63,412 nt of DNA, taken from positions 104,073 through 167,484 of the forward strand of contig NW_019218144.1 of assembly GCF_002571385.2 (NCBI RefSeq), in the 5' to 3' direction. Origin of the DNA: Stylophora pistillata (taxonomy: Eukaryota). Made by a program: the position numbers and the translations under genes. A model generated the notes under the pieces. It worked only from the letters and a program-made list of their open reading frames with translations. It had not been told where the DNA came from and did not search any database. Of the stretch, positions 37,501 to 63,412 are shown piece by piece. Within the stretch, counting starts at the first letter, position 1, and the number at the start of each line of letters is the position of its first letter.

Positions 37501-38226
37501 GTCTGATTTTCACTATTGCATAAATAGCGCTTTCTGCTGCGAGGATCGTGCATCATAAGTAGAGAGTATGTTAAGGTGTAAGGGATTAAGACCACTTTGT
37601 TTTCATTAAGCTGACTTGTTCTTTTTTCGTTGTTTGTCTCTTAATAGGCCATTTTATAGTTGTGTACTTTGACAGTTGCCAAACTTTTGGTTTGGATTGA
37701 GGCTGAAGGTGACATTGTTGTGATAGAGACCAGTGTTTGGTTAGCAGGATAACAAATTAACTAAATTTGAAGAGCAGCAACATTTTTATCACAACAAGGT
37801 CACCCTTAGCCTCACTCCTGTTCAAAGGCTTGGCAATCAAGCACACAACTGTAAAATGGACCATTTGGAGGCATATTTGATCGACATAACTGTTTCTTCT
37901 TTCTGTATTATTACATCTTTCAGCTTTCCCCACCCCTGCACCGCCAACTACGCCACCACCCCTTCATGGAAAAAGTAAGTTGTATTCATTAAACCCTTTA
38001 AGCTGCTACTTAAATCTAAGAGTTGTTTAAACGATCCAAACTTCTTTTATGCTTGGACTGATTGACTTTAGTTTTATGTATAGCTTTGGTTATCCTGAAA
38101 ATGTGAAATGAAATAGATATCTGAAAGAAGTATTTTCCACTTTGTACGTTTCCCGCCTATCGTTAAGTTTGTGGTGTTTTATGACAAGTAAAAAGTAAGT
38201 GACTAATTAACAATTATTCCACGAGC

Positions 38227-38284
<58 letters not shown>

Positions 38285-38285
38285 A

Positions 38286-38322
<37 letters not shown>

Positions 38323-38411
38323 TTTTATTAAAAATTATCAATTTTTAGCTCCCTTTTAATTTTAAGCTGACACGTACGCTTGCCGTATTTGTAGATATGG
38401 TATATTGGCTG

Positions 38412-38466
<55 letters not shown>

Positions 38467-41400: not shown

Positions 41401-44400
41401 CCCGAATACTGGCAAGCTAGACGCAAAGAATTCCATAACCGTGTTGGCCTGGGTCTTGCACATGGGTTATGCGGGTCCGATTTTTAACTACAACCGTGGC
41501 CCGGGATGGGGAGTACATTTATGGATGACAAAACCACGACAGTTCTTTGCCCGGTTTGTCCGGCGGGATGGTCGCCCCACCACACCGCTTGTTACCCATG
41601 GAAACAACGTGCGATACAAAGCGTGGAATTTCGTTGGTGCATCTTTCGATGGAAACACAGGGATGGCGACACTGTGGGTGAAAAATCGACCAGTTGTTCG
41701 GTCCAATATCGGGAAAGTTCGTCTGGCGACAAACCGCCCCGTGCGTATGGGTGCAAAGATTGGCGATCGTCGGTACCTCCGTGGCAGAGTATCGTGTGTT
41801 CAGGTTTACAGCGTGGCACTTAACCGAAAGCAAGTCATAAATGCTGCAAAGAGATGTTTCAAACGTAAGCCTGGTCCAAATTTTGTCAAACTGTACAGAC
41901 CTATACTTTTAAAAGTTTTTAAGGCACCAACTTATGTGGCAAACTCAAGAAGACATACATAAAAGTACAAAATCACACATGCGCTTACACTGGGAGAGAG
42001 CATATCTGGGCTGCGAAGTAGCTTAGAGTTCAACTGAATTGTACCTCAAGCACATTTTCCACCACATTGAGATGAACACTTCTTTTTGTGTGATAGTAAG
42101 AGAATAACTTGTTTACAGCAATTTGATGTTTCATTGCTAACATTGGTTACTTGATCAAAACATTCTATTTATTTTACAATCAACAGGACAACCACCACCA
42201 ACACCTCCACCTCCAGGTATGATTTATGAAAGTTATTCTTTTTATTTTTTTTACAACTTTTACAGTAATGACTATGAGCATGACGTTTGGTGTAAAGGCA
42301 AACGGAAAACTCTATTCTGAACGTATTTACTTAAACAACAATCCTAAATACAACTTTGTTTAAAATATTTTGATCACCTTCTTCACCTAGCACCAGTCCT
42401 TTCTTATGAATTTTTACCTAATCCCTGCCAGTCTTTACATTTTCTTCCACGGTTGACGAAGGAGTCTTTGCCCCTACTTATAACCATCTACATGACTCCT
42501 GACTGATTCGAAGGCGGTTGCACATATATATACTTTTTTAATTTTAAGATTTCAACATAGTTCCTTTCGAAATGCTGTGACTCCTTTTCTCTAGGCATTG
42601 TTAGACAATTGAGCTCGGTAATTGTTGCGACTAAACTTCGTTCGCGGAAGTTTTCCTCTCAAGTTTCATCCCTGACTGGTATCTTTGATGTAATTGCTTG
42701 TTACACAACATAGGATTCTTCATCCAGTATCATCAATGACTGTAATAATTGTGATTATAACTCCTTCCTTAAGCTCTCGTGGAACGTTGGGTAGAAGCTC
42801 CAGTAGAACCAAAGCATACATGTTAGACAGCCTTGTCTAAGTGGGTGGGTACCTGTGACGGTTGCTGGATCCGTCAGCTTCCAAAATGGTTTGGCCCAAG
42901 GGTAGACTGACCTATTTTACTTACCATTCACGCGTTACTTTGCCCTTTCAGTCTGTAGAACGGTTGTAGACCTTGGTTTCTTAATTGATGGCTCTGGAAG
43001 TATCGAATATCATGGTCGAGGGAACTTTAGGCTGATGCTTCGCTTCGTAAAATCCGTTGTGGTCACGCTTCCCATTTCGAGAACTCAGTCACGTGTGGGT
43101 GCAGTGCTCTTCTCCACGAATCCAATACCGTTGTTCAGATTTGGTCAGCTGAACACCATCACGCATGTACAACAGGCTATTGACAGCATCAGATACCCTC
43201 GTGGCAAGACGTACATCGGCAAGGCCTTGGCCTACGCCAGAAGATTCTTATTTAGTGGACGTAGGAATCGGAATCGCAAGCGCGTCTTGATTATGCTCAC
43301 GGATGGCATATCACAGGACCGTGTTGGGCGTCAGGCGTTGCTTCTGAAGGCAAAAGGCGTTGAGGTTTTTGTTGTTGGTATCGGAAGAGCACTTAGGAAA
43401 CGGCAACTGCTGCAGATTGCCACAGACAGGAACCATGTTTCTGTTGTATCCTTCAGAGGACTGGCTGGTTTGTCAAGGATGATAAGGTCCAAAATCTGTC
43501 AGCTTATCCAACCTACAGGTTAGTGCATGAATGTCCTTGTGATGTGCCACCGGGATAGGGAACAAAGATAAATACAGAAAGTGAATGGGAATTCCTTGCG
43601 AGAAGTAAAGAAAATAGAAGACATGTACGCGGAGGCTAAAGAAGAAATGTGACTTTGTAAAAACCCTTGCTGCCTAGGGAAAGAAAGACTCGTGCACGTT
43701 TAGCTAAATAGCACCCAAGGGTTTGTATCGGGGCGAAGTATTCACTTTTTATACTTCTTTTTCAGGAGGGCCAAGCAAGCCTACACCGACAAGAAGTAAG
43801 TGTCACTTCGAACCAGCACTTCTTTTAATTGTTTCAGCCAGTAAAACGTTGTGTTACGGTTATTCTGATCTACCCAACAATTTCATCACTAAGATCGTGT
43901 CACAGGAAATGGGATACCATTGCCCAATGTTTTTCTTTCCTTTTTTTCTGAACTCAAACATTTTGCCTTCAAAAAATTATCTTGCAGTTTATATTCCGGA
44001 TTCCATAGTTGTGTACCCTTTGGATGGTCTGAGGCGGGGAAAAGACATCAGCCGAACCAAGAACCCCTCAGCCTCTCTAATGGGCGTAGGCACTGCTCCA
44101 GGTCCGGACGGCCGCCGTGATGGGTCCTTACGTTTCTATGGAAGACGAAACAGCTACGTCGAAATTCCCAATACAGGAAAGCTGGACACAAGATACTCAA
44201 TAACAATTCTTATCTGGGTGTACCACTCAGGGATATCAGGACCTATATTCAATTACAATCCACGAGGCTTCGGCGTGCACGTGTGGATGACAGGGCGACG
44301 CCAACTTTTCGCACGCTTTGTGCGACGCTCAGGGAAATTCACGTCACCGATTACAAGTGGAAGAATGAAATACAAGGCGTGGAATTACGTCGGTGCAAAG

Positions 44401-47400
44401 TACGATGGTAGAACAGGCGTGGCGACGCTTTACATCAACTCAGTACCAGTCGGAATAAGACGTTTAGGACGAATAAAGTTATCGACAAACTATCCTGTGA
44501 GACTTGGAGCACGGGAAGGAGACAGGCGCTATTTCCGTGGAAGACTCTTTTGCGCGCAGGTATACAGTGCTGCCCTCAGCCAGAAACAAATCTTCGCGGC
44601 CAAACAGAGATGCTTTTTGCCAGGTTTGTGCTATTTGTGTTCTATTTAAATGCTTTTGCAGAATTAATGGAAATGGCGATGGACTTCCTTCTCAAGACCT
44701 TTAGCTATCTGTGGAACTTTTAAATTAAGGGGAAGCCTGTTCCTTTTCGAGATTGTTCCTGCTTGTTAGAAGAGTACTTCATCCCCTGAGCTCTTTCTAA
44801 ATAATACGTAGAGAAGATTAAGATTTGCGCGCGTCTGGCTTTCGTTGATGACAATCTGAATCTGGTACACAGGTTTTAAGTTGTGGCAAAGTGCAGATGA
44901 AGTTTTACGATGATGAAAGTATTAACAAAAAGCTCTTCTCTTGCAGTTCCCTCTCCTACTCCTCCCCCTAGTCCTCGCCCAAAACCAGCTCCACGTGGTA
45001 AGCCTGTCATGATAGAATATATTCATCATACTTGTTTTAACAAAGGTCAACGTTTGAGAAACTTAAGGTCATTTGCAAGTGCTTTTCTTTAAGATGTTTC
45101 TTCCTTCTCTGTTAGTTTGCAGGCAGCGTATCGATCTCGGCTTCCTGGTGGATGCGTCTCGCGTCAGGTATAGCTCCCGTGTCATTTTGCGATTCCTCAA
45201 AGACACAGTCAGGTTATTTGAAGTTTCCAGGTTGAAAACTAGAGTTGGCATCGTGCAGTACACCTCTAGAGTTAGGCTCCTTTTGCGATTTGGAAGAAGT
45301 AACAATCCAAGTCAAATTAACAGACTGATCGATCAGATCCGACTCATCGGTCGCACTGCTAGATACCTTGGAAGAGCCCTGACTTACACAGCACGGTACT
45401 TGTTTAGAGGTAGACCACGCTGTGGGCGAAGAAGGGTTCTTGTTGTTCTGGCGACTGGAGAGTCCCGCGATGGGGTCACAAGGTCCGCAAGAGGATTATT
45501 TTCTTCGGGAGTGGAATTATACGCTGTTGGTATTGGAAGTGTGAGGAGACAATCGTTGCTTCGCATTGCCACCATCTCAAGTCACGTGTTTAGAGTTCGT
45601 GCCAGGCAGATGGTGTCGCTTAGTCGGATTATTAAAGATAAAATATGCAGTTCGACAGGTTAGTGGGATTCTGGTCGTCGTATAATTTTAGCCTTTTGAT
45701 CCCAACAAATCATGTAACTTAAAGGTTACTTCCTCGTTAATGCTTTTAGAATCGGTTTTGCGTGTTATATCTCGCCTTGTATATCCTGTCCCAATGCGTT
45801 TCGTCAACGGTCCTCAGATAGTAAAGCTCAAGAAGTAAGTGTGGCGGACAATGGCGGTCTAAAAATAAGGCAGCTACACAATAATGGCGTGACACACATG
45901 GCAAAAATCATTTCCCAAGTTCTCTCTCATGTGTACTACTTCTAGTAAAAGTCAGAGCTACTTACTTTTTTTATCGCGACGCACATCATCGTACGTAGTT
46001 TGATCTTTTACAGTCTGTGATGGAGACAAATTTATTTTTCAGGGGCAGAAAAATTCACAAAAAATTCGCTAAACTATTCGAAATAGGTTGTCGCTTCAAC
46101 TTGTTCCCATCCCGTGTCTCGTTGACCTGTCTCCCAGCGAGTTTTGGCTTTAATAACCACGGCTAAAAAAGTAGCGTTCACCGTACGGAAAACAAAAGTT
46201 GAATTCACGGAAAACGTGGCAATTTACTAACGTTTACCCGTGTTTTTCCAGCGTTAACGCTCTTCTTTATCTTCAGTTGTCACTTCCGGTGGCGCGGTCG
46301 GTTTCTATCCATTTACAAGCACCTCAGGCGGACGTGACGTCAGTAGGTTCAGGAATCCTTCAGCACAACTTGTTGGCGTTTCATTCATTCAAGGCCCAGA
46401 TGGACATCCACAAGGAGCTTTCTTTTTCCCAGGGGTGCGAAGACGTGGGGGAAGATCAAGAGGCAGTTATGCCCTGATCCCAAACAACGGATGTCTGGAC
46501 ACCCGTTACTCTATAACGATAATTGCATGGATTTACCCGGAGAAACCCGGTCCCATTGTGCACTACAATCCAAAGGGATGGGGTCTTCACTTGTGGCTCA
46601 CTCATCCAAACGAACTCTACTTCCGCTTAATGCCCAGGCGGGGCTCTCGGCGTAATGTTAAACCGCTGACCACCCAGAGCTTGAAGCCTTACAGATGGAA
46701 CTATATCAGTGCTACTTATGACCACCGCACAGGACTTGCAACGCTTTGGTTGAATGGGCTTCCTGTGTCTCAGAGGAATATCGGAAAGTTTTCTTTGGGT
46801 GTAGCCACAAACTACCCCATAGTCATTGGTCAGCGGCCTGGAGATCGTCGCGTGTTTCGTGGACGTATCGCGTGTTTGCAAATTTATAATGTGGCTATGA
46901 CGAGAGCACAGATCATCGCCAGGAGAAAGCAGTGCTTCAGACCAGGTGGGAATAGAAATAAACTGCGTTTAAAACTAGCATTTAATCAAACTAGATTGAA
47001 ATTGACATTTGAAGCGTTCTATACCGTGATGTCTCTAATTTATTAGTAGATTGCTTTTGTATAAGATATCGCTCAATTTTTGGACAAAAAAAACCTGGCC
47101 CCGGTTGTTCGAAGATTGGATAACGACGCTATCCAGTGGATAAATCCTTATCCAGTGAATAGTGCAGTGCGTTTTGGTATAACGTATCCGCTGGATAGCG
47201 TTATTTGCCCTTTTTACAACAGGGCGCTGGAGGGTGTGATTGTTGGTGAAAACGTAAATTCCGTCCGTCAACGTCTGCTATGCATAAGTTAAATAATGTA
47301 AAATATCTTGAGTGCCATAGCTCTCGTGGTCGAAACTGATTGGCCATCTTGTCCTTGATATAATTTGCTTGATAAGTAACCGTTTGGGTTGTAAAGGTGT

Positions 47401-50400
47401 TGACAAGTATTTGAGAGTTCTAATATAATGTTTCTTTAAACATTCTAGTGGTTGTACCCACCGCACCAACTCAGAAACCATCAACTCCTCGACCAGGTAC
47501 GTTTCACAGCTTTGTCGTTATTTTTCGAAATCAGAAAGGCCACAGAAGTAGCAAACCTTGAATTTAAGTTTTACTCGGCAATAATACGCGTCTTCTCTCC
47601 ATAATGGTTTTACTAGGGGAAAGCTTGGAGGCGCTAGCGGTTAGCTAACTTTTAAAGTTTTAAATGGTAATGGGATTTCAAACCCGAAAACTTCGGAAAA
47701 GAGGCAACAATTTCAATTTTACCAGTGGACAAGTGAAAGGAAAGGAAGGGGCTTCGAAAGTTTGCCGTGAAATTTAAGGGAATAGTGTTTCGACATGTTT
47801 GGGCAAAATATTATTTGGTTTAAGTTTGAGTATATTCAACAACTTTCTGTTTATAATCTTTTAGCAGCTTACACGTAGCGTATTTAAACCGGTGCGTGAA
47901 CTTAGAAAGATCAGGTTAATTGAAACAAATAGTACAAAAAAAGGCTATTTTCAGGCGCTTTTAAATGAACTTCTCCGCTCAAAACAGTGAGAAAGCTTTA
48001 ACGCAGTCTCTCTGGCATTTGCTGTTTTTACCTACTCTCCTGTATATTCTTGTTTTGTTCTTTAGTTTGTGCAGTACCTATTGATCTTGGCTTCCTCATT
48101 GACGGTTCCTCCAGTATAGAACGTTACGGCCGAGGGAACTTTGCCCGTATGTTAAACTTTATCAAGTCTTTTGTGAGCTTCTTTCCAATCTCTCGTCGAG
48201 ATACCCATGTTGGCGTAATCCTATACACTCGCCGGGCTATACCTATCTTCAGCTTCAATAAATACTACTCCAGGGCGACCATCTTGAAAGCTATTGAGAA
48301 CCTGAGGTATCCCCGAGGAGGCACCTACATCGGGAAGGCTTTGTCATTTGCCCGACGGTACCTTTACCCAGGAAGATTTGCATCTAATAGAAAGAGGGTG
48401 ACGATTGTGCTTACCGACGGCATCTCCCAGGACCGTGTAAGTGGACCGGCGCGCCGTCTGCGCGATGCAGGCTGCGAGATCTTCGTTCTTGGCATTGGAC
48501 GAGGGTACAGGATATCTCAGTTGCGGCAGATTGCCACTGATAATAATCACGTATTTACGGCGTCCTTTAGATCCCTCGGGACACTCATACAGAAGATTAA
48601 AACCAAAGCCTGCCAGAAGCCAGTACCTACTCCAAGTAAGCATTGCTGTTGTAAACATCAACATATTTTTATACTAGGTTTAATAATTTTAATTATTGAA
48701 CATAGTGTAAGAATATTGAACATAGTGTAAAAAAATTGAACATAGTGTATGTTCGATTCAATTTCTTAGTTTGCTTGCACACTTAAATTCAAGTTATTCC
48801 ATCTTTGAAATTGTCATAGAATATAGAAGATAAGGTGGCAAACTGTATTGTACTTATTTAAACAATATAATTTACTGTCTATCTTAACTGATATTCTTTT
48901 TCACTGCTTTTTTGCAGTACCAACAACCCAAAGAGGTAGGTCAGTTCTTGTTAGATTTCAATACCGTATATTAGCTGAAGTTATATTAAGAAATGTAAAT
49001 GAATTTAATTTTTTTTTTACTTTTTAAATTCGCTAGAAATTTCAATTCAATCTTTTCATGGTAAGATTTCGATTCGTTTACCTCTCTTTAACTACTCATG
49101 GAATCGATGTTTTAGACATGAGTTCGTTTTAACTTCAGTTCGACTCCCAAGTACCATGGCTGTTTACCCATTCGATCGTGCGCGAGCGGGTCGAGATATA
49201 AGTCGAGGCAGAAATCCAAGTGCACGAATCGTCGGTGTGAAATACGGACAAGGCCCGGACGGCCGAAGGGACGGCTCTACGGTGTTTGACGGAAGACCTA
49301 ACAGCTACGTGGAAATCCCCAACCGTGGGAAACTGGACGCGAGGTATTCCATAACCTTCTTAATCTGGGTGTACCATGACGGCCGCAAGGGACCAATTGT
49401 GAACTACAACCCGAATGGCTACGGCGTTCATCTATGGATGACAAACTATCGGCAGCTATTTCTTCGCTTTATGCACCGCAATGGACGCACAACTAGACCC
49501 CTAAGAACCAATCGGTTTAAGTACCGAGCTTGGAATTATGTTGGTGCCACTTACGACGAACGGTCTGGTATTGCTACGCTGTGGTTGAATTCTCATCCGG
49601 TAGCAAGACGGCGGTTGGGTAGAGTACGTCTCTCCACAAACTATCCTATTAGACTGGGAGCCATCAGGAGAAGTCGCAGTTATTTCAAAGGAAGAGTCTT
49701 CTGCTTACAGCTTTACAGCGTCGCTTTGACTAGGAAACAGATCTTTGAAGCCAAGAGCAAGTGCTTTTTGCCAGGTGAAGTTGCTCAACTAGATTCTGAA
49801 GTCTGTTGTACATGTAGGCTAGAGAATGTTTCAACTTGAACTACAGGCAGATAACTTTTCTGTTTCATTGTCCTTTAACTAACTCTTTGACAGTGTTGAC
49901 GGCCTTCCTCTTTAGCGTCTTTCTCCAATTGGTTTCTCTTCTCCTGATGTAAACACAACTGGAAAGTTATCACTTACCTAAAAATCTTCATGGTGACTTC
50001 CCATTTCGGAGATAGCAGTTTTTTTCTAAAATGATCGCCGTTTGGCGATATCGTTCACAAGAATGTGGGTCATTTGTAGGTACAAAGTTAGTAAGTACCC
50101 AGTTAGCCCAATGGATAGTGCGCTGGACTGTTGTGCGGGAGGTCGAGGGTTCGAGCCCCGGCCGGACCAACACTCAAGGTCTTAGATTAATTGAGAAGAA
50201 TTTGCTACCTTTCTATAACATCAAAAAATGGTTGGACATTCTACTCTTCTGCTGGGTTGGGGGTAGGAGACGTTAATTTCCCACGCACGAGATTACTGTG
50301 TGATGGACGGTCCTCCCCTGGGTTGGCATGGGTGGGTTTACTGGGTTCGCAGTAATTCGCGCAAGCTGTTGCGATGTCCCTGCCGGTCGGCGAAGCTAAT

Positions 50401-53400
50401 AAACCAAACGCGTACCAACGAATCATAATCACATGCAATTGTGTATCAATTTTTATTTAAAGTTCCTAAGCCAACTACGCCGGTCACCAAACCAACCACT
50501 CCGCCCCCGAGAGGTAAGTAAATGTGTTGTTTGTTCCTCTGTGTGTGTAGCCTTCTCGATTCTCACTTCCTTTTTGACCTGTGCATAGCCCCGTCAATCA
50601 AACTCATAACACAAACCTACTGTACACTATTTTAAAATACACTATTTTACAATTAATTCTCAAGTGAAGGCCAGAGACGTTGTAGTGGTGTTTACGTGTT
50701 TTTTTTAATTTTGTTTAGCAACTTGGTTTTACTGCGACACGACTTAATCTCTCTTTCTCTTCCTTTTTTTTTTTTCAATCTCTTTGCGGTCTTTATTACA
50801 ATCAGGAGCTACACAAACACCGCTTTAGACTCAGAATAACCGAGCAGCAGCTGCTTCTGAACCGCGCCTTGTGACCATGTTCGTGGCTAGGTTACAGAGT
50901 TGTTTTTAAAATGGTGCCGTCCATAAATCAGGCGCACATTTGAAGACTTTATGTTCAAATGGTCAACTTAATTTTTTTGAGTCTCAAAATGCGTTAGGTA
51001 ACAAATTGTTGCGGAGACGTTTTGATTATGGGGAGAAAAATCATACGATTCCAGGTTACCTCTCTTTTTGCGTTAAGAAGTCGCGCTTTGTGAAGGATAC
51101 CTTGTTAAGGAATCATGCTTTGGCAAGGATACCTCGTTCCTTTCAATGGTTTCCTTATTGTTCTTTTTCACTCAGTTGAATGAGCTGGCTTAAAAGTTGC
51201 TTCGCTGATTACTTGGTTTGTCACCAGATGTACTATAATTGCTTTAAACATCGTCAAAATGATTTTCCTCATATTTCTTTTTTATTTCAGTCTGCAGAGC
51301 CCGTATCGACCTTGGTTTTCTTATCGATGGCTCTCGTTAAACTGGATCCGTTACTTTTCAGCGCATCATCGAATACGTGAAGGAAACGGTCAGGCGATTT
51401 GATGTCCAGAGGTCACAAACAAGAATAGGCCTAACCCTTTTCGCTTCAAGCCAGCGGCTGGTGTTCGGCTTTGGTAGATCGCACAGTAGAGCGCAAGTAT
51501 ACCAAGAACTTAGAAGGTTGACGCTATTGCGTGGAAGACGAAGAAATACAGCGCGAGCCCTGATGTATGTTAAGAGATATCTGTTCCAAGGCAAACCCAC
51601 ATGCGGCAGGAGACGAGTGCTTATACTGGTAACTGCCGGTGAATCACGTGACAATGTGGTGCGTCCGGCAAGAATCTTGCATGCTGCCGGTGTCGAAGTG
51701 TACACGGTCGGCCTTGGTCGGGCTAGTGGGCGATACTTGAGGAAAATCGCCACAGACCGGTTCCACGTGTTTTCCACGAATGTCCGTAGTTTGTTGACTA
51801 TAGTGAGAACCATCAAGGACAAGATGTGTCATTCCCCAGGTAAGGCTAAAAAAAAATTTGGAGTTACAATTGATACCTTTTCTTCGAAGTATTCTATCCG
51901 CTAACTGACTAATTGACTGACTGACCGGCCAACCGATAGACAGACAGATAAACATCGAATGTCTTCAAACTTCAAATATATTGGAACAATTCAATTTATC
52001 GTATTCAGTTTAACTTGGCTATATTTTAACTTTGAAAACACGCCACTTTGCAAGAACAAGATAAAATAACTCAACAGAAATTAACCCAGAATATATTTAT
52101 TCATTTTATTTTTCTACTAGTCATCATTTCTAGAGGAGCTGTAGCCACGTATCCCTTCACAAGTGCAGTACGAGGCGGTGACATCAGTCAGTACAAGAAC
52201 CCTCCCGCACGACTTGTACGTGTTACCTACATCCAAGGACCTGACGGACACCCGAAGGGGGCTTACTACTTCCCAGGGAGAACTCGGATAAGGGGAAGAA
52301 CAAGAGTGAGCTATGCCGTTCTGCCGAACAATGGTTGTCTTGACACGCGGTACTCGCTGACGATGATACTCTGGGTGTATCCTGAATCTCCAGGACCTTT
52401 GATTCATTTCAACCCTAGGGGATGGGGAGTCCATCTGTGGGCAACCCGTCTCACTCAACTCTACTTCCGGCTTATGCCAAGGAGTAGGACTGGCCGTAGA
52501 GTGAAAGCTCTGATTGGTCGCGGGCTCAAACCAAGGACATGGAACTACGTTGCAGCAAGTTACAACCACCGCACCGGTTTGGCGACTTTGTGGTGTAACG
52601 GCTATCCGATTGTCCAGAGAAATGTTGGCAGGTTCCCAAGTGGATTGGCCACCAATTATCCCATAATGATCGGTCGAAAGCCTGGCTCTCGTCGCGTGTT
52701 TCGTGGACGAATCGCGTGTCTGCAACTGTTTAACGTGGCTCTCACGCGACCTCAGATCGTTGCCCTACAGAAGAAATGCTTCCGACAGGGTAAGTGTCAC
52801 CAGCTTTTCCGATATTAGTTATATTTTGAATTATCCCATTATTCTAACTTCTTTTCATACAAGTGTATTTCATTATTTTACTTACCAAACATTGAATTTC
52901 TCTTTCATTCTAGTTCCTAAACCCCCGCCCACTCCAAGTCCAGGTAGATGTCAAATATTTGTATTTTCTCAGAACTTCTCTATCGTGTAACTTTTTGAAC
53001 ACCTTTTTAAACTCTATACTAATTTACTCACTTAATGATTCATGGCTGTTAATGAACATCGCATTTCTGTTCATAATTATTCCAGCTAAGACCGTAATCA
53101 CTTTTACAAAATACGTGAATTTAGTATGTTAGTCCACTTTGGTGTTGTAACAAGAGATTTTAGTTTGTAGGGCGACTTCATTCCCCTTAAATTGCATGTT
53201 TCCTAAACATGTTACTTTATTCTTATTTCTCAAACACCATCAGGAGACTTTTAGGGGACAATTATTAAGGGACCAGTATCACCCCGGGGGGGGGGGGAAA
53301 GGTTGGTTAGATCACAGGGTTTTGAGACGGAACATATTGTCTCCGCTAACAAGGCATAAAGAGGAGGCCAGAGAAAATTGATTGCCATTTAACTGCCAAT

Positions 53401-56400
53401 GGGAAGGGCATCACAAGGACATATAGAGTGTTGTTAATTATCTTCTATACTTTAGTATGCAGATCTCGGGTGGATCTCGGTATTCTTATCGACGGTTCCA
53501 GAAGCGTCGGACGAAGGAACTTCAGAAAAGTTATTGACTTCTTGAGATCCTTGGTCAGCTTCTTCCCCCTGTCCACGCGACAAACACGAGTGGGTGTGAC
53601 GCTGTTCTCTTCTCGATCGAGACTCGTGTTTGGATTCAAAAGATATGGCTCAAGAGCGCAGATTGTAAGAGCCATCAACCGTATAAGGTTTGTGTAAGAC
53701 TGGTGTCATGTGATTTGTTCCACACTTTGCCTATTTCTTCATATTTTGAGTGGACGAAACTTTGTTCCGCGTGCCAAACTCTTTTTTCTTCAGCCAATAA
53801 AACTGTAACACTCCCTGGCGGAAATATCCAAGCTGCGATTTACCTTGTTCTTATCCTTGCCAGATATCTGCCAAGAGGACGTGGAAGCTATATTGGACGA
53901 GCTCTCAGATATGTCCGAGGTGCGCTGTTCCGAAGGCGCGTCATACGAGGGCGTAAACGCACCCTGCTTATATTATCCGACGGTGCTTCCTCGGATCGTG
54001 TTCGAGGACCTGCCTTGCGCCTTAAGAGAGAAGGTGTAGAGTTATTCGCACTGGGAATCGGCTCGCGGTTTAGCAGAAGTCAGCTTCAAATGATTGCTTC
54101 CAGTCCTCTTAATGTTTTTACGGCTGGATTTAGTCGGCTTGGTAAAGTTATTCAGGCCATCAAAGAGAAAGTGTGTCGCCCTAGACGACCAACACCTACA
54201 CGTGAGTTTATCACCGTGTGATACTGAGTCCTCTGACTTTCCTAAGGGTTATTGAGTTTCCACATTGATCGCCATGAACTCATGTTTTTTTTTTTTTCTG
54301 TTACGAATAGCTCAGAGAATTCGGCGCAAATTATGACAATTGGGAAATTTTCATTTCGCTCAAGACTTCAATCCTGGGCCTAAGTGATAAGTAGTGGGAA
54401 GTACACAAACCCTTCAAAACGAAACAAATTTCAGAAAGTTTGGAAGATAATCTCTTGTTTCTTTTCTTTCGGTTTTTGTTTCTTTTTATGTTGGCTATTT
54501 TTTGTTTGAACTTTTGACTTTCCGTTATGTTCTATTATTAGTTTTAAATTGAAGCTTAAGACGTTTCTTTTTAACGAAGCATTTTGTAATTGATAAAGTT
54601 TTTATAGTTATTTATTCATTGTTAAGGTTTCAAATAGAACATTTCAAGTAATAATTAGTTATATGTTATATATCTTATTTATTATGAATCACATTTATTG
54701 TTATTTTGTTTTCCAATTATCATTATTATTATTTTTATTTTATCTTTAGTTTGTTGTAATTATTATGTTACGGTGCATTTGAATATATATACATAGAATT
54801 TGCGCCTTAGAAGTCAATAAATTATCATTATTATTATTATTATGAATTGCTCGAATACCTAACCGTCCAACCAGACAATTGAATTTATATTTCCCAACTT
54901 ATGATCTTTATGTCACTCTGAAAGAATTATTGGTGTACTTATCATGATCTGGCATGAGTACTCGGCTAATTGTAAATTATTTTTCTTTTGCAGCTACTGT
55001 ACCAACGCCGACGAGTAAGTGTATCATAATTACTGCCAGAGTTGCGGTTACGCTACTGTTTTGAGCAATCCAATGATACCTCGCCAAAAAACAAGTTCGA
55101 TCAGTTCTTTTCAAACTGCAAGACGTATTGAGACTGATTTATTGACTGATTGTTAACCTCAAAGGCTCACTCTTTGATTATAACACAATCCGTTTAGGAG
55201 ATGTAAGATTATATTAGAAGACGCTTTACTAAACCCAACAATAAGTTCATTTGCATAGAAACATTTCCTGCAATTGCAGGGTAATTTTCAATTAAGAGTC
55301 GGTAGTACTCAAAAATTGCATTGGTTTTGCTTTGATTCGCTCTGTAAATGGTTTAGAAAACTCGCCCCACCATCGAAATCAGTGATAGGCGAAGCTAAAA
55401 CCAATTACGATTTGTTCCCCTGCGTCTTCCCGCGCTTCAGGCATTTTGTTTGTGTTTTTTTCTAAAAGTTGTGAAATACCACAGAAGATAATTTTGTTCA
55501 TTCGAATGGCGGCTGTGATAAATTTGGTTTGAGGTTAAGAAACTTAATCGAAATGTGCTCCATGCGATGAATAGCAAAAGTAAAGTATAGCTATTTTACA
55601 GAACCACCCCGTGCCGTGGCACTGTATCCCCTGAACAGCAGAACCCAAGGACGAGACATCGGCCCCAGGAAAAATAAACCCGGGCGTCCCAGTCAAGTAC
55701 GTTTGGCCTCTGGACCAGACAAGTTTCCACGGGGATCCTTCTATTTCACCGGTCAGCGTGGTAGCTACATCTATTTCCCTAATAATGGTGGCATTGATAC
55801 CAGAAACTCAATTACTCTCCTAGCTTGGGTCCACCCTGAGAAAGGTGGTCCTATATTCCACTACAACCCGCGAGGCTCGGGCGTAAGCTTCTGGATCTTA
55901 AGGAAGAATACCTTGTATGTAAAGTTCGTTCGGCGCTCCGGTCGTGGGTCGTTTATTCTGAGAGCACAAGGTATTCGCCCGCGGATCTGGAACTATATTG
56001 CTGCAAGTTATGACTGTAAGACCGGGCTAGCTACCCTCTGGCGCGAGTCAACGCCCATTGCACAGAGAAATATCGGAAGAGGTTTGAGGCTCGCTACCAA
56101 TTATCCCGCGATTATGGGAAGTAGACCAGGATCTAGAACTCGTTTCCGTGGTCGGATTGCTTGTATGCAGGTGTTTGATGTGGCACTAACGGGACCTCAG
56201 ATGAACAAGCGACGTAATGTTTGTTTCAGAGGTGAGCACTACTGGATTTGACTCTCGGCTATTACGCTATACCATATCTGAAAAAAAAACTACACCACTT
56301 CGTACACCACAGGAATTCTATACGTTGATGAAAATTCGTTAAAAATATCGCTTCATTCTGCAAATTTGTGTGATAAAACTTCAAGTCTCTTCCAGAGAAT

Positions 56401-59400
56401 ACCATCTAAGCCCTGATCTTTTTGGTTCCTCATGGGATAATAGCCTAGCTCTCACAAATCGAAAGTGAAGAATTTTCACAAGTTTTTGTAAAAGAAGAGT
56501 TCCAAAAGCGTAAGTCATAAAAATTCCTCACTAGTTGCTTTAGTTTTTTACCGACCGTTATCATAAAGTTATACTAATTCAGGCGAGAGCGGAGACTGGG
56601 GCATTCTTTCGGTCAAGTTACTTATCTTTGAAGCCTAGTTTCGAGACATGCTCACGAAGAAAAAGTATTCATTGAGATATCTTGTTTTATATTTTCCAAT
56701 AGTTAAATTTTGAGCTCCCATGTGGCAATTATTCCAGTCAGTTGCGGATGTAGACTTCACCCTAAGACTTATTAGTCGGCCGAGCTTAAATCCCTGCAAT
56801 ATTCCACACTTTAAGCTGAGTCGATATGTTTGCTTTTAATTGCCACTATGTGATTTTTTTTATTTTAGGTGCTCCCCCACCAGAGCCGCCTCCTCCAGGT
56901 ACGTACTGGTTCTTCTTCAATGACACAAGTTAATTATTGAACTGTGTGACTTCTAGTATGGTCATTCAACACGTTAAACTTTGGGTTACAGATTTCATCT
57001 TCCTGATAAAAAGAGCTTAACGTTGGCAGGGAATAATGTCAAAAACGCTTTATATGAATGCATGATTTATTCTAACAAAGATATAGATATCGTGTGGCAA
57101 CCGAGGGTGATTTTCTGTCTTTCAGAGTTACCGCCTCTTGTAGCCATATTCACTCTGGATGGTGAAACAAAAACCAAAGATATCACTCGTAACAACCCGC
57201 CCGGTATCCCATCGCATGTCCGTCCAGCACCTGGACCCGACGGAAATCCCAAGGGATCAACTCAGTTCTTCGGATCGTCAAACAGTTATATCGAATTCCC
57301 AAACAATGGAAGGCTTGATACCAGGCGTTCTATGACCATCTTGGCTTGGATTTACCACAACGGGAGGTCTGGGCCTATCTTCAATTACGATCGGCGTGGT
57401 TTCGGAGTTCATCTATGGATGGTTGGACCCAGAGTACTTTTCGTTCGTTTTGTTAAACGCTCACGAGGGAGAACATCTTCAGTGGCGACCTACTCTACAA
57501 AACCGCGTTATAGAGCTTGGAACTACATCGGAGCCACTTACGATTACAACACCGGTGTCGCTACATTATGGCTGGACTCGAAACCTGTGGCGCGACAGAG
57601 CATCGGCCGCTTCGAGCTAGCCACGAATTATCCAATCAGGATGGGTGCGCGAATCGGCGATAAAAGGGCTTTCCGCGGTAAAATCTCCTGCGTGCAAGTG
57701 TATAGTATCGCTTTAAACGCGAAACAGATACGTGGAGCACGGAAGCGGTGTTTCAAGAAATGTAAGTTGATCTATGTTGATTGCCTGCTTTTAGAAAGCT
57801 ATGGTGATGCGTGCTCGTCGAAGTTTAATGCCTAATAAAGACAAGCAAAGGCATTCTTCACGTTGCAATTTACAGTTGAAAAGACTCAATATCGTAAGAC
57901 ACACGATGAAAACTTTGACTTAAGTTGTACCAAAATGGTTTGCACGTTTTCAAACGCCAATTATTTGATGAGTCGAATGGGCCACCAATTTTTTTTTCTT
58001 TTTTTTTTTTTTTTAAGTCAGCACACTCATAAAACAAAATATATCATTTTAGGCAAGGTTGTATTTATATAAGCACGATAAACAGAAAACTCATCTTTCA
58101 TCAAAACTATAATTAGCCTACTGGTTGTTCAAAAGAAGACAACAATTGATATAAGCTCAACGTGTAGGATCTGTTTTATTTTTTATAGGAACTTTTATTT
58201 TAGGGAGAACAGTTCTATCAAGTTTTGCCTGGGAATACTTGAAAAAAGATTCACAAACTGTTTATGAAATGAATGGAAAGCGTAATGAGATTTTTAATGC
58301 AGGCTAGCCCTTTTAACTTTGCGAAACAACAAAATGGTTACTTTTACGAGCAAGCTTTACCACTGTCATCGATTTTCGACATATTTTAGTACAGATCTAA
58401 TCAACAAATTGACAGTGGTTTAGCGTGGTCTGCACTCTTATCGACAACGATATTCTTCATCACAGTTGTTAAAATGTTGTGGACTCACGAGACGCAGCCA
58501 AGCTAAGCCACCGTGGATTTGTTTTTTACCACAACATCGGCGTCAAATAAAACTTTCAGTGCGTGACACGTTGCGTGACACGTTGACGAGAGAAGCGTTT
58601 TCTCTACTGTTATCGACAACGGAGAATTGGCCAATCAGATTGCGACAATATTGCCAATGGTGATGGAAAGGCCATTTTAATTTCCTTTATTTCTCGCTCA
58701 TATTTAGGGCCCATCACAAAGCCAACGCCTCCAGGTAAGTAGGTTTCAATGCTAAAAATAAATGTGTTAAACTCTGGATAATCACTGTGAAAGATATTGC
58801 TCAAGCACTCCAAAACCCGAGACTAAAATTGTTTAACTTCAGGAGAGGCGTCTTTTGCCACCGCTGATAAACGCTATAAAAAGTGACAGCTTTTTTGGAG
58901 GTTACGGAACTTTCCTCCTTTTATGCGGCGTCTTTTTAAGATTTTGTTTACATTGAGTTTAAGGTCGAAGTCAGAAATAAGGTGAGGCTTGCTATCTTAG
59001 ATATTGCATTTTTTGTGATAATCACTTTTGTCTCATTTTTCTTTTCAGTCGTAACTCCTACACGTCCTCTGCCAGAAAGTACGTTAAAGTCGTAATTTAT
59101 CATTTGTCATTTATTATTTATTTATTATTTATTATTTATTTGTTATTTATTATTTATTGTTTATCGTTTATTATTGGTAGTAGTATTGGAAGTAGCATTA
59201 CCGTTGGGCTTTGATTTAGAGCCTTTTTTATCTATGAAGCCGGCGTTACTTGTCTTTGCCAAGCGTTATCTCAATGATTTATCAAGTATGGCTTTGTGAA
59301 CTCGCAAAAATATTAGACCTGTTAATCGAACGAAAGTGTGATATCACACTGTTTATATCGGGCGTAAAATGTAATGTGTTTTGTCTTTCCTTTGTTTGTC

Positions 59401-62400
59401 GTATCTAGTGTGTAAGATTGGAATAGACCTCGGGTTCCTTGTCGATGGATCTGGAAGCATCGAATACCAAGGTAAGGGAAACTTTGCTCGTATACTAAAC
59501 CTCATTAAATCGTTGGTCAGCTTCTTTGAAGTGTCTAAAGGAAAGTCACGAATCGGTTTTGTGTTATTCTCTTCTCGACCGATCCCAATTTTTGGGTTCC
59601 GACGTTATTCGTCTAAAGTGCAAGTCCTTCGGGCGATCGATCAGGTTCGTTATCCTCGAGGGGGCACGCGCATCGGAAAAGCTTTACATTTTACCCGAAA
59701 CTACCTCTTCAAACGACGGATACCTCGGAGGAGAAAGCAGGTGCTGGTGTTGATCACTGATGGTATTTCACAAGACCGTGTTGGTCCAGCTGCAAGTCGC
59801 CTAAAGGCCACTGGCACTGAAGTGTTCGCAGTGGGTGTTGGAAAGAACTACAGGCGTAGACAGTTGCACCAGATAGCTACAGATCAGAAGCATGTACTGA
59901 CCACCTCATTTAGCATGCTAATGACAATTATACCGGGCATAAAGAACCAAGTGTGCCAGCGGCAAAAAGTTGGTGAGTACAGAAGATCTTTACTTCTCTT
60001 CTATACCAGGATCGTATTGTTTCATTAAAAAGAAAACAAGATAGCGGTAGAATTCAGGGCACTTTTGTTAATGATTTCATTTTAATGAAACTTTTGCGTG
60101 AAAAAAGTGCTAAAATCGTGCTTTCAAAAGATGATGATGTGGAGTGGCTTAAAGATGGCTGGTTGTATAGTTGCTCTGCATAAGTAGTTTCCTTTGAAAC
60201 TTGAAGAGGAAGGATGGGGAACTCACAGCAATAACTGTTTCAACATATGATTTAGGTTTACTATCTTATTTGTCTGAAAGAAATTATTTTCTATTTTCTT
60301 TTCCCAATCTTACTGTGGTAGAGATGATGTTATGACATTTGAAAACCATATCACTGTCTGGATAGCAAAAACACTCGCAGAAACACCACGCATCGAAAAT
60401 GCGTTAGGAATCATCTCTTCTCCACAACAATTCATTGCTACTTTGTGAATAAGGAGCTCATGAATATTGCACATTTTTTCACTCTGTCTTTCTTAACTCT
60501 CAGTACCCACCGTCCGCCCTATCAGCAAACCAACCACTACACAACGAGGTAACTATACAACTATTCTAAATCTCTTATATCGATTTCTTTTGTTCAATTA
60601 TTCCTGTGTAATTCTTTAAAGTCTGCTTCCTTATCTTCCTCAGCGTGTCTGATTTTATCAGCTAACTTCACCTTTTTTCTTAATATTGCTTGGCATAAAT
60701 AAAAAAATACAATGATTACGTGCTTTTAAACTTTTGCATTTACTCTCTCGCACCGATACTCACACTTTTAAACACAGCTTTGCGAATTCAGGATTTGCTT
60801 TTTTCTACTTAAACTTACAATTTCATTTTCTTTACATCCTATAGTGGAACTTCCCAGAACACTGGCTGTGTATCCGCTGGACTACATCAGGCGCGGACGA
60901 GACATCAGTCGTAATAGAAACCCATCAGCCAGATTTTATGGTGTCACATACAAACAAGGCCCTGATGGCAGACGGGGCGGTTCTTCACAATTTTACGGAA
61001 GATCAAGTAGCTACGTGGAGATTCCTAACAAAAGGAGACTAGACGCTAGATATTCCATCACTGTCTGTATTTGGGTATATCACGAGGGACGACGTGGTGT
61101 TATACTTAACTACAATCCAAACCGGAGAGGCTTCCAGCTGCGCATGATCAGTCCCAGAGTACTTCAAGTGATAATTGTTCGACGAATAAGAAGGACAACA
61201 ATAACGGTACAGACAAGAGGAAGAGCTATAAATTACAGGGCTTGGAGCTACATAGCTGTAACATATCACGAGCGAAGTCAAGTAGTGACCATTTGGGTAA
61301 ATTCCAAACCAGTTGTTAGACGAACAATTGGTAAAGTTCAGTTAGAAACCAGGAAGGCAATCAGACTCGGTGGACAGAGAGGCAGCAGGGAGTACTTCCG
61401 TGGTCGTCTGTTTTGTCTTCAGTTGTACAGTGTGGCGCTAAACAGGAAGCAGATTGAAGAGACTAAGAAACGATGCTTCAGGAAAGGTAATGCATCTTTC
61501 TTTAGTTTCCTCTTAATTTGAGTTTCTCCATTTTTAATCCCTTACATCAGCCAGTTCATTTGATTCAACATGAATTACCATTGGCTCGTTGTGTTTACCT
61601 GACATTTGATTTCATAACACTCAATCGAATGCTCTCTGATAGCTTAAGTTTTACTTAACTTTTGTCCTTTGTTTTAGTGCCCATCACAACTCCAACTCCG
61701 ACGCGTAAACCTACACCTGCTCCAAGAGGTAAGCCACAAATCCGTGACGTAATATGGTTTTTATCTCCTCGTACTAATCACACGACACCAGAACCTGTAT
61801 TGAAATTGAATAAACCGGCAACAATAGATACCTACGAAAAAAAACTTCTCTATTCCTGGGATCAAGACATCAATGATATATCAATGCAACATTATTTAGC
61901 TTAAACTCATGTCCGATCTTAACACAATGCAAAACTCGTCTAATTTGTTCAGGGTTTGCGATTACCTTGCGGTAAGTGACATAACTTTCTTAGCGAGATA
62001 ACATCTTTTGGTGCTCCGTATCCAAATGATTCCAAGAACATTCTGCCGTAGTGCAGTATTTTGAAAAAAATTACCTCTGGTCATTTTTTTTTTTATGCAC
62101 AGTTTGCACAGCCCGTGTTGACCTCGGCTTCCTTATTGATGCGAGCAGCTCTGGAAGGAGAAACATCCCCCGTATCGTTCAGTTTTTGAGGGAGACTGTT
62201 CGCCGGTTTACCATCACGAGTAGAGCGGCACGTATAGGGGTGATAACATATGCATCTCGTCCCAGTCGAATTATTGGATTTTCGAGATACACTCGTGGTC
62301 AAATTTATAATGCCTTTAGAAGAATTGGTGTTGTTGGACGCGGAAGGTATCTAGGTAGGGCATTGGCATATACCAGACGTTACCTATTTGGAGGAAAACC

Positions 62401-63412
62401 TCGGTGTGGGAGGCGAAGAGTTCTGATTGTTGTGACGACGGGACAGTGGGTCGATAGGGTAAAGAGACCAGCCGAGGCACTTAAGGGAGCTGGTGTGGAG
62501 ATATTCACGATTGGTATTGGCAGCATCAGAAGGACCAGTCTGTTACGAGTTACAACTGACACAAAGCATGTATTTATGGTTGGGTATACACAGCTTTTGT
62601 CCATTGTAAAAACATTAAAGGACAGGATTTGTTACTCTCCTGGTAAGTTTAATTTAGGGACATGTGTCTTCACTACTGTGAAGTGACGGGACCATAGTAC
62701 TTTCTGATCACTCGTGACCTTCCTAAAAAACCCTTTTTTTCGTCTTCGGAGCAATCCGTTTTAATTAATATCTGTCCTATAACCTTTATCAAGATCAGAT
62801 CTATTTATCATCAGTAGCTGAGCTTAGTTGCCGCGTTAAATTTAACGTTCAGTGTAATTCTCGGGATGGTTATCAGCACACTAACCACAGCAATGAGACA
62901 ACAGCAATTTCTGATTACTCGTGACCTTCCTAAAAACCCTTAATTTCATCATCAGAGCAACTAACCATGCCTACCATGCATTTGATAATTATTCGTACTC
63001 TCTTTTCTTAGTTATTCGCCGTGGAGCAGTTGCAGTTTATCAGCTCACCGGCGCCTCCAAGAACCGTGACACCAGTGGATACGTCAACCCACCTGCCACA
63101 TTTGTAGGTGTTTACTACGCACGTGGCCCAGACAATCATCCACAAGGAGCCCTTTCCTTTAGAGGAACAAGAAACAGTTATGTTTTGATTCCCAATAACG
63201 GCTGTCTGGACACAAGATACTCACTTACAATTATCATGTGGGTGTATCCCGAGAGCAGTGGACCTTTGTTACATTTTAATCCAAAAGGCTGGGGTGTTCA
63301 CGTGTGGATCATAAGTCAGTTCAGACTTTTCGCTCGGTTTGTACCTCGCTCACGCAAATCTGTGACAGCTGTATACAAAAAGATAAAGCCACGCCAGTGG
63401 AACTATATACGA
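25550..63412 (+). CDS. Giant secreted Arg-rich VWA/LamG multidomain protein; 3'-incomplete, at least 46 exons, about 4,780 codons, in-frame TAA at 51338
   Basis: 5' exons 25550-25682 (signal peptide MRSSSLLRAVLFLLVASHVLT), 26700-26969, 27633-27875, 28753-28792, 28945-29432. Then domain exons (listed separately) with micro-exons 32696-32764, 33521-33550, 36084-36113, 37924-37974, 39473-39514, 40802-40828, 42187-42216, 43766-43795, 44947-44997, 47449-47496, 48918-48935, 50463-50513, 52914-52943, 54994-55014, 56869-56898, 58708-58734, 59049-59078, 60504-60548, 61678-61728. All GT-AG with consistent phase. Confidence 0.85.
27633..27875 (+). CDS. Gene 4 exon: WSC-like domain
   Basis: FKSLGCWKDTWDRAI...LMKCAEAA...FSLQNGGQCFSG...KYG.SDSC; completed by micro-exon 28753-28792 (DGEGGPWGNEVY). 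Confidence 0.85.
28945..29432 (+). CDS. Gene 4 exon: acidic P/T/E-rich linker ending CPVC
   Basis: ORF 28865-29443 trimmed to ag|g...c|gtgag; rich in E/D. Confidence 0.8.
29587..30088. mobile_element. TTAA-flanked non-autonomous DNA transposon (Kolobok-like termini)
   Basis: TTAA-ggtggttc ... gaatcacc-TTAA. Confidence 0.6.
31826..32389 (+). CDS. Gene 4 VWA domain 1
   Basis: DLAFLIDGSAS...VVVITDG...IYCLGVG; phase 1-1 exon. Confidence 0.92.
32928..33190 (+). mobile_element. tRNA-derived SINE with CORE-like middle region
   Basis: A/B-box-like head, then gtgttgttaggcaagacactttactctcacagtgcctctc...aaatggg resembling the MIR/CORE domain, and a tttac tail. Confidence 0.65.
34062..34685 (+). CDS. 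Gene 4 LamG-like domain 1
   Basis: AFYPL...GPDG...FPNKGKLD...LLAWVYP...WNYVGASYD...FRGRVSCMQVY. Confidence 0.92.
35251..35426. mobile_element. MITE with 21-bp TIR, nested in a palindromic element (about 35125-35465)
   Basis: aatagcccatttccgaattac ... gtaattcggaaatgggctatt interrupts the right arm of the host hairpin. Confidence 0.75.
36412..37041 (+). CDS. Gene 4 LamG-like domain 2
   Basis: Same motif set; phase 1-1 exon of 630 nt. Confidence 0.92.
37238..37557. mobile_element. tRNA-like-sequence-containing retroposon with terminal fold-back and 12-bp TSD, nested in a MITE (about 37056-37590)
   Basis: TSD agtagagagtat at 37226-37237 and 37558-37569; hairpin about 37236-37360; tRNA-like ggcttgttagctcaattggtagagc...ggttcgaatcccgtccaggcc at about 37416-37487. 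Confidence 0.75.
38205..38480. mobile_element. Palindromic non-autonomous repeat (hairpin 38208-38325)
   Basis: aacaattattccac ... ccaacgaggcgcgtagcgccgagttgg ... gtggaataattgtt. Confidence 0.7.
38648..39211 (+). CDS. Gene 4 VWA domain 2
   Basis: DLGLLLDGSGS...LLVVTGSRS...EIFAVGMG. Confidence 0.92.
39867..40493 (+). CDS. Gene 4 LamG-like domain 3
   Basis: Motif set conserved; phase 1-1. Confidence 0.92.
41226..41864 (+). CDS. Gene 4 LamG-like domain 4
   Basis: Motif set conserved; phase 1-1. Confidence 0.92.
42952..43518 (+). CDS. Gene 4 VWA domain 3
   Basis: DLGFLIDGSGS...RGKTYIG...MLTDG; intact MIDAS. Confidence 0.92.
43988..44623 (+). CDS. Gene 4 LamG-like domain 5
   Basis: Motif set conserved; GRLFC subtype. 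Confidence 0.92.
45116..45658 (+). CDS. Gene 4 VWA domain 4 (degenerate MIDAS, CGRRR subtype)
   Basis: DLGFLVDASRV...GRPRCGRRRVLVVLATGES. Confidence 0.92.
46277..46945 (+). CDS. Gene 4 LamG-like domain 6 (NNGCLD subtype)
   Basis: 669-nt phase 1-1 exon. Confidence 0.92.
47095..47228. mobile_element. Short MITE-like repeat with tatccagtggata palindromes; degenerate relative at about 2595-2680
   Basis: ggccccggttgt...acaacagggc ends and repeated tatccrstggata. Confidence 0.55.
48066..48635 (+). CDS. Gene 4 VWA domain 5
   Basis: DLGFLIDGSSS...RGGTYIG...VLTDG; intact MIDAS. Confidence 0.92.
49139..49774 (+). CDS. Gene 4 LamG-like domain 7
   Basis: GRVFC subtype; 636 nt, like domain 5. Confidence 0.92.
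50097..50410 (+). mobile_element. tRNA-derived SINE
   Basis: ttagcccaatggatagtgcg...gagggttcgagccccggccggacc head with A/B boxes continuing into a non-tRNA body. Confidence 0.6.
51291..51839 (+). CDS. Gene 4 VWA domain 6 (CGRRR subtype) with in-frame TAA at 51338-51340
   Basis: CRARIDLGFLIDGSR*TGSVTFQRIIEYVKETVRRF...; otherwise open, with intact splice sites. Confidence 0.85.
52121..52789 (+). CDS. Gene 4 LamG-like domain 8 (NNGCLD subtype)
   Basis: 669 nt; close paralog of domain 6. Confidence 0.92.
53456..54201 (+). CDS. Gene 4 VWA domain 7, split by a phase-2 intron (53456-53687, 53864-54201)
   Basis: DLGILIDGSRS...INRI AG|gtttgt ... ccag|A YLPRGRGSYIG...LSDG. Confidence 0.88.
55602..56231 (+). 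CDS. Gene 4 LamG-like domain 9
   Basis: Closest to domain 3 (PP.A, NYPAI.G.RPG). Confidence 0.92.
57126..57761 (+). CDS. Gene 4 LamG-like domain 10
   Basis: Closest to domains 2 and 4 (RMGA.IGD). Confidence 0.92.
59409..59972 (+). CDS. Gene 4 VWA domain 8
   Basis: DLGFLVDGSGS...RGGTRIG...LITDG; intact MIDAS. Confidence 0.92.
60845..61486 (+). CDS. Gene 4 LamG-like domain 11
   Basis: GRLFC subtype. Confidence 0.92.
62103..62642 (+). CDS. Gene 4 VWA domain 9 (CGRRR subtype)
   Basis: DLGFLIDASSS...GKPRCGRRRVLIVVTTGQW. Confidence 0.92.
63012..63412 (+). CDS. Gene 4 LamG-like domain 12 (NNGCLD subtype), truncated by the window edge
   Basis: ttag|TT ATT CGC: IRRGAVAVYQL...GPDNHPQG...IPNNGCLDTRYS...WVYP...WNY; not in the ORF track. 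Confidence 0.88.

Follow-up and report, generated by a model that had tools for sequence, protein, structure and literature searches.

A probable disulfide-stapled VWA–LamG pair in a repetitive gene of the coral Stylophora pistillata

The window analysed here is a stretch of 63,412 nucleotides of the Stylophora pistillata genome (contig NW_019218144.1), which carries part of one plus-strand gene running from position 31461 to beyond the window end at 63412.

31461..63412, + strand: host gene (partial), domain order V-L-L-V-L-L-V-L-Vc-Lc-V-L-Vc-Lc-V-L-L-V-L-Vc-Lc (V, VWA; L, LamG; c, extra Cys)

The modelled part of this host gene comprises 4,402 codons and specifies nine VWA domains (V1 to V9), 12 LamG domains (L1 to L12) and short stretches encoded by Pro/Thr micro-exons. 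Its exons are of symmetric phase 1, and V7 alone is split in two exons. PF00092 scored 93 bits in V4 and 97 bits in V9 (curated cut-off, 23.8), with a VWA fold match at Z 27, while PF13385 (Laminin_G_3) scored 66.7 bits in L6 and 54.7 bits in L8 (curated cut-off, 27.6), an assignment in which the atlas concurs. The encoded protein contains 13.4% Arg and 4.4% Asp plus Glu and likely acts as a secreted matrix scaffold of strongly cationic character; judged by its charge, it would have an affinity for polyanions, for instance acidic proteins or sulfated glycans. A scan of 29450–31460 for a signal peptide gave no convincing first exon. Close relatives are Acropora proteins annotated as “uncharacterized”, and coral metagenomes are among the sequencing runs that contain this DNA. 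A search for long relatives returned only P0001, eight fish collagen XII proteins and two other LamG proteins, with none at 3452–5000 aa. A Gly-X-Y triple helix, as in FACIT or type VI collagens, is absent from the approximately 4,400 amino acids modelled, in a gene that extends past the window, and from the Pfam scans of P0162 and P0275.

Other features lie upstream in the window. On the minus strand, 4170–4925 is another Laminin_G_3 exon of the same type (E 3e-16), part of a neighbouring gene; on the plus strand, a further VWA is spread over several small exons between 18550 and 21800, belonging to the same gene or to another. Just upstream of the basic VWA–LamG gene, a separate-looking plus-strand gene (25547–29443) has a signal-peptide-like start and acidic, Pro/Glu-rich exons, the last of which gave no match in the Pfam scan.

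The earlier note on this DNA, made from the letters alone, had pointed out three VWA domains with an extra Cys in a CGRRR motif (V4, V6, V9) and three LamG domains with an extra Cys in NNGCLD (L6, L8, L12). The six codons are located exactly there, at 45421, 51602 and 62405 in the VWAs and at 46492, 52336 and 63203 in the LamGs. The exons concerned, called Cys-type below (the others being plain), and the two extra residues of the V4–L6 pair are as follows:

45116..45658, + strand: V4 exon, Cys-type VWA with Cys1, Cys102 and Cys177; MIDAS degenerate (DASRV, ATG); PF00092 E 3e-26
45421..45423, + strand: V4 extra Cys102, located in the loop that connects helix 4 to strand D
46277..46945, + strand: L6 exon, Cys-type LamG with Cys72, Cys199 and Cys219; PF13385 E 3e-18
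46492..46494, + strand: L6 extra Cys72, in predicted contact with V4 Cys102
51291..51839, + strand: V6 exon, Cys-type VWA with its extra Cys codon at 51602 and an in-frame TAA at 51338–51340
52121..52789, + strand: L8 exon, Cys-type LamG with its extra Cys codon at 52336 and a further, odd Cys158
62103..62642, + strand: V9 exon, Cys-type VWA with its extra Cys codon at 62405
63012..63412, + strand: L12 exon, truncated where the window ends, Cys-type LamG with its extra Cys codon at 63203

The other nine LamGs of the window have K, R, P or G at the site, just as described before, and the other six VWAs have S or R in place of the extra Cys. In V6, the in-frame TAA, which the earlier note does not mention, lies upstream of the extra Cys; the nearest homologous exon (P0159, 74% identical) has no stop at that position, and spliced RNA exists downstream of it. 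The TAA may be an assembly error, a null allele or a fixed stop.

Five Pro/Thr micro-exons border the Cys-type pairs:

44947..44997, + strand: Pro/Thr micro-exon before V4
47449..47496, + strand: Pro/Thr micro-exon after L6
50463..50513, + strand: Pro/Thr micro-exon before V6
52914..52943, + strand: Pro/Thr micro-exon after L8
61678..61728, + strand: Pro/Thr micro-exon before V9, both splice joints present in an RNA contig

Within the pairs, single introns of 618 nt (V4–L6), 281 nt (V6–L8) and 369 nt (V9–L12) separate the two domains, and a connector of roughly 10 residues is encoded at the exon ends. The claim that no linker exon hides there agrees with our scan of these three introns, which yielded three, zero and two weak candidates, respectively (donor score 3), none of them Pro/Thr-rich; the same scan retrieved the Pro/Thr micro-exon in all five VWA–LamG introns used as controls.

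The earlier note had named cDNA as the place where a hidden linker could surface. In one contig of the polyA RNA run X16, 62641 is spliced straight to 63011 (GT..AG ends, zero letters between), while the control joints of that run do contain linker letters (at V5–L7 and V7–L9) or show both joints of the exon before V9. The contig differs from the window in 17 of 251 and 18 of 395 letters. Relative to 60845–63412 and beyond, its order is a V9-type exon, an L12-type exon, 282 nt, and then an L11-like exon. Because of the mismatches and this continuation, the contig probably represents a further downstream repeat (a sister copy) or an allele, and the gene likely goes on as (L-Vc-Lc)n, as in A. 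palmata XP_074635745. The direct splice is seen in RNA for a V9-type to L12-type joint; V4–L6 and V6–L8 lie outside the 15 of 36 RNA joints that were displayed. Depth over the exons was near zero in the raw RNA runs X21 and X24.

Taking the window together with five Acropora gene models as annotated in RefSeq, we counted 18 VWA-to-LamG junctions (one plain junction has a LamG flagged as partial). Both Cys occur along with a 13–15-residue connector in 10 of them, neither Cys occurs and a Pro/Thr linker of 24–44 residues is present in the other eight, and mixed junctions number zero. One spare Cys per adjacent domain is thus co-conserved in the Acropora models too, the covariation that had been proposed as a check. 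An exception is the partial Nematostella model EDO35180, which joins a CGRRR VWA directly to another VWA; the LamG exon may have been skipped in that model.

V4, V6 and V9 form one clade (96/94), as do L6, L8 and L12 (100/99). The Cys pairing does hold in all three pairs of the window; these are, however, paralogous copies of one module and not three events, so that the threefold match represents one event copied and is, by itself, not beyond chance. At the level of sequence, the weight beyond chance lies in conservation: the Cys-type copies are only 38–63% identical, and both extra Cys are kept in them, also across genera. In the alignments, all 32 Cys-type VWAs have the extra Cys and none of the 14 plain ones does; among the LamGs, it occurs in 37 of the 38 of Cys type (the remaining one has a gap) and in none of the 126 plain ones. 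Many of these rows are near-identical, dereplication at 90% leaving 12 versus 13 VWAs and 6 versus 28 LamGs, and seven of 53 VWAs and 21 of 185 LamGs are unclassed in the counts.

A second contrast involves the following block near the start of the modelled gene:

38648..40493, + strand: V2, linker exon and L3; no extra Cys in either domain, while the matching A. digitifera block has both, joined directly

In that block (A. digitifera XP_015766254), V1644 (RCGRKR) is directly joined to L1830 (PNRGCMD), with both Cys present. L1830 is the sister of L3 of the window (94/91), and the block order agrees with L2-V2-L3 of the window. The LamG tree requires two changes of Cys state, one change sufficing in 8% of the bootstrap trees. 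As V2 was not recovered as the sister of V1644, this contrast depends on the LamG tree and the order of the domains; it is suggestive of both Cys having changed together.

The Cys-type VWAs also differ at the metal site. By the criterion of a DxSxS motif plus the Asp after strand D, and with 24 of 31 VWAs parsed, all 11 Cys-type VWAs have a degenerate MIDAS, whereas 12 of the 13 plain ones retain it. With the MIDAS aspartate lost from its sequence, the Cys-type VWA is likely a metal-independent structural partner. The sole plain VWA with a degenerate MIDAS is V2, which would fit V2–L3 being a released former module.

To see how the two domains could meet, V4 and L6 were docked with ESMFold2 as separate chains, without the linker or an alignment. 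The pair scored 0.65 (0.67, 0.64 and 0.65 in the runs) versus 0.02 for the best of three controls, which were unrelated proteins, and close relatives can pass such docking. Of 78 solved complexes, 51 pass the docking mark applied, as do two of 108 mismatched pairs (in eukaryotes, 39 of 65 and two of 126, respectively). At least 96% of the contacts agree between the runs, and the pLDDT of the partners is at least 85. The predicted contact with the least error, 1.5 Å, is Cys102–Cys72, i.e., the two extra Cys, and the model thereby favours the disulfide put forward earlier over the refuting case named in the earlier note, that of two Cys far apart, with the caveat that a language-model folder may pair two spare Cys by habit. 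Model recall of a similar complex would be less likely, because no VWA–LamG tandem is among the fold matches listed (50 entries for VWA). The predicted interface on the VWA comprises residues 3, 99–106, 128–133, 152–153 and 179, the face that holds the termini. It includes three of the four other Cys-type-specific residues of the VWA (two of them adjoining the Cys) and none of the 12 of the LamG. These 12 residues (e.g., P119, G174 and P187 in L6 numbering) lie outside the predicted interface and possibly mark a separate binding surface.

For a joined Acropora Vc-Lc chain of 398 aa, AF2 folds both domains well (pLDDT 91.7, pTM 0.68), and the pLDDT of the connector is below 50 in both AF2 models. 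By rough estimate, independent domains would give a pTM of about 0.53 and a rigid pair at least 0.83. The pair had been called rigid and the linkers between pairs flexible hinges; rigidity is partly supported, the pTM falling between the two estimates and the connector having low confidence. Instead of acting as flexible hinges, the Pro/Thr linkers may be glycosylated and serve as stiff spacers.

We propose that a Cys-type VWA is followed, over a short connector without a linker exon, by a Cys-type LamG, that the two extra Cys would meet across the interface, and that they would bond within the chain and staple the pair into one unit. We judge it highly probable that this intrachain bond is made in the secretory pathway and locks the two domains together. 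In the predicted arrangement, the LamG would sit against the side of the VWA carrying its termini, across the domain from where the metal site used to be. The usual internal disulfides (first to last Cys in the VWA, the C-terminal pair in the LamG) are likely kept, by which all six Cys would be paired. The module would have a single origin and have been duplicated since as a two-exon block, so that stapled units alternate in the whole protein with free domains on Pro/Thr spacers.

Docking of separate chains fits a contact in trans as well as one in cis, and the same bond could accordingly link two chains, by a domain-swapped contact or by cross-linking of spare Cys; the module would then be a polymerisation point instead of an internal staple. 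The low-confidence connector in the AF2 models and the Nematostella fragment, where no LamG follows the Cys-type VWA, are compatible with such cross-linking. We nevertheless deem it unlikely, given that Cys-type VWA and LamG are adjacent over a connector of fixed length in all 10 complete cases, that VWA residue 179, where the connector starts, is within the predicted interface, and that the AF2 pTM exceeds the estimate for independent domains.

It is also conceivable that both Cys are unpaired passengers, co-occurring solely through shared descent of one duplicated block, as the single clade on either side would allow in the window. Odd Cys are indeed common in the host gene (V1, V5, L2, L8, L9 and L11), yet each of those occurs in a single row of the dereplicated alignments, while the two extra Cys are invariant among the diverged copies, form the top predicted contact, and apparently change jointly in the V2–L3 block; that they are mere passengers is in our view very improbable. 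Hardly any weight, finally, goes to a different connectivity in which the loop Cys bonds to one of the two terminal Cys of the VWA, first or last, and the Cys so freed bonds the LamG. By VWA topology (AF2 secondary structure and the known fold), the loop Cys would lie on the same face as the terminal pair, with residues 3 and 179 in the interface, but Cys1 and Cys177 themselves are outside the listed interface, 102–72 is the best contact, and the terminal pair is kept in the plain VWAs as well.

Inter-domain disulfides have a precedent. In the laminin alpha chain, a Cys in the LG3–LG4 linker bonds to LG5 (PMC3544776). LG4-5 thus shares with the V4–L6 type of pair an inter-domain disulfide in tandem, and LG4-5 structures are among the fold matches; there, however, a linker Cys is involved, whereas here the bond would link a loop Cys of a VWA with one of the LamG that follows it, and the LamG is of the PF13385 type. 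The search for a solved sequence relative of the LamG found none (best E 0.04), and clostridial neurotoxin binding domains matched only as generic LamG folds; the protein was not taken to be a toxin. The best fold matches of the VWA (VIA) belong to collagen VI alpha-3 and mussel PTMP1, with 4ihk at Z 27.2 (rmsd 1.9, 185 aligned) and 4cn8 at Z 26.4 (rmsd 2.1, 186 aligned). The latter is PTMP1 of mussel byssus, which, like the arrays of collagen VI alpha-3, has tandem extracellular VWAs with terminal Cys but no LamG partner; in PTMP1, the linker is stabilised by a disulfide. Inter-domain disulfides being common in extracellular proteins, the surprise of finding one more is limited.

VWA and laminin G domains do meet in the molluscan shell matrix proteins Pif and BMSP, with chitin-binding domains between them (PMC11291548). 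The host gene differs by alternating VWA and LamG many times and by having none of those chitin-binding domains: its junctions consist of connectors of only 13–44 residues, and no such Pfam match was found in P0162 and P0275. The same family, the same module, both Cys and the direct join do occur in Acropora, namely, at LOC122957851 (A. millepora), LOC141894096 (A. palmata) and LOC107331766 and LOC107345043 (A. digitifera), where the L-Vc-Lc repeat has undergone more expansion than in the window and the annotation falls into several models. In the passages covered on the skeletal proteome of A. digitifera (PMC4890752), none of the VWA or laminin G proteins named corresponds to the host protein. 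Likewise, supplement file 4 of PMC12549020, which lists no domain architectures, has no recognisable VWA–LamG entry among the 15 of 56 vWF places covered. No description of a VWA–LamG disulfide module was found in the literature searched; subscription papers and supplements could hold one. We consider the module real and the proposal probably correct. Inter-domain disulfides are known, and it is the VWA–LamG form for which we found no description.

If the proposal is true, the pair is a novel building block of two domains, belonging to a giant matrix protein of corals that has yet to be described, and a ready construct of approximately 400 aa for structure and ligand work. It would also be a clean case of exon shuffling followed by fixation of the joint, in which paired Cys go together with loss of the linker exon and of the metal site. 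RefSeq splits this gene into several “uncharacterized” models. On a wider and decidedly tentative reading, which we think has a small though real chance of being right, the host gene would belong to an old family, in anthozoans, of giant matrix or adhesive proteins of cationic character with two exon-encoded kinds of joint, switched by coupled changes. Gain of both Cys, a direct splice and the loss of MIDAS would make a stapled, metal-independent unit; loss of both Cys and gain of a Pro/Thr micro-exon, as in V2–L3, would free the domains again; and the staple might additionally cross-link chains into a network.

Some further sequence elements of the host gene are of note. The intron after L7 contains, at 50098–50400, a high-copy element that is abundantly transcribed and dominates the RNA reads; its start resembles a tRNA, and by eye it looks like a SINE. 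The micro-exon after V1 (32696–32764) encodes a CLC motif with two more Cys, unlike the other Pro/Thr linkers, and V1 itself has an odd Cys142. Furthermore, L6 and L8 both carry a seven-residue, Arg-rich insertion.
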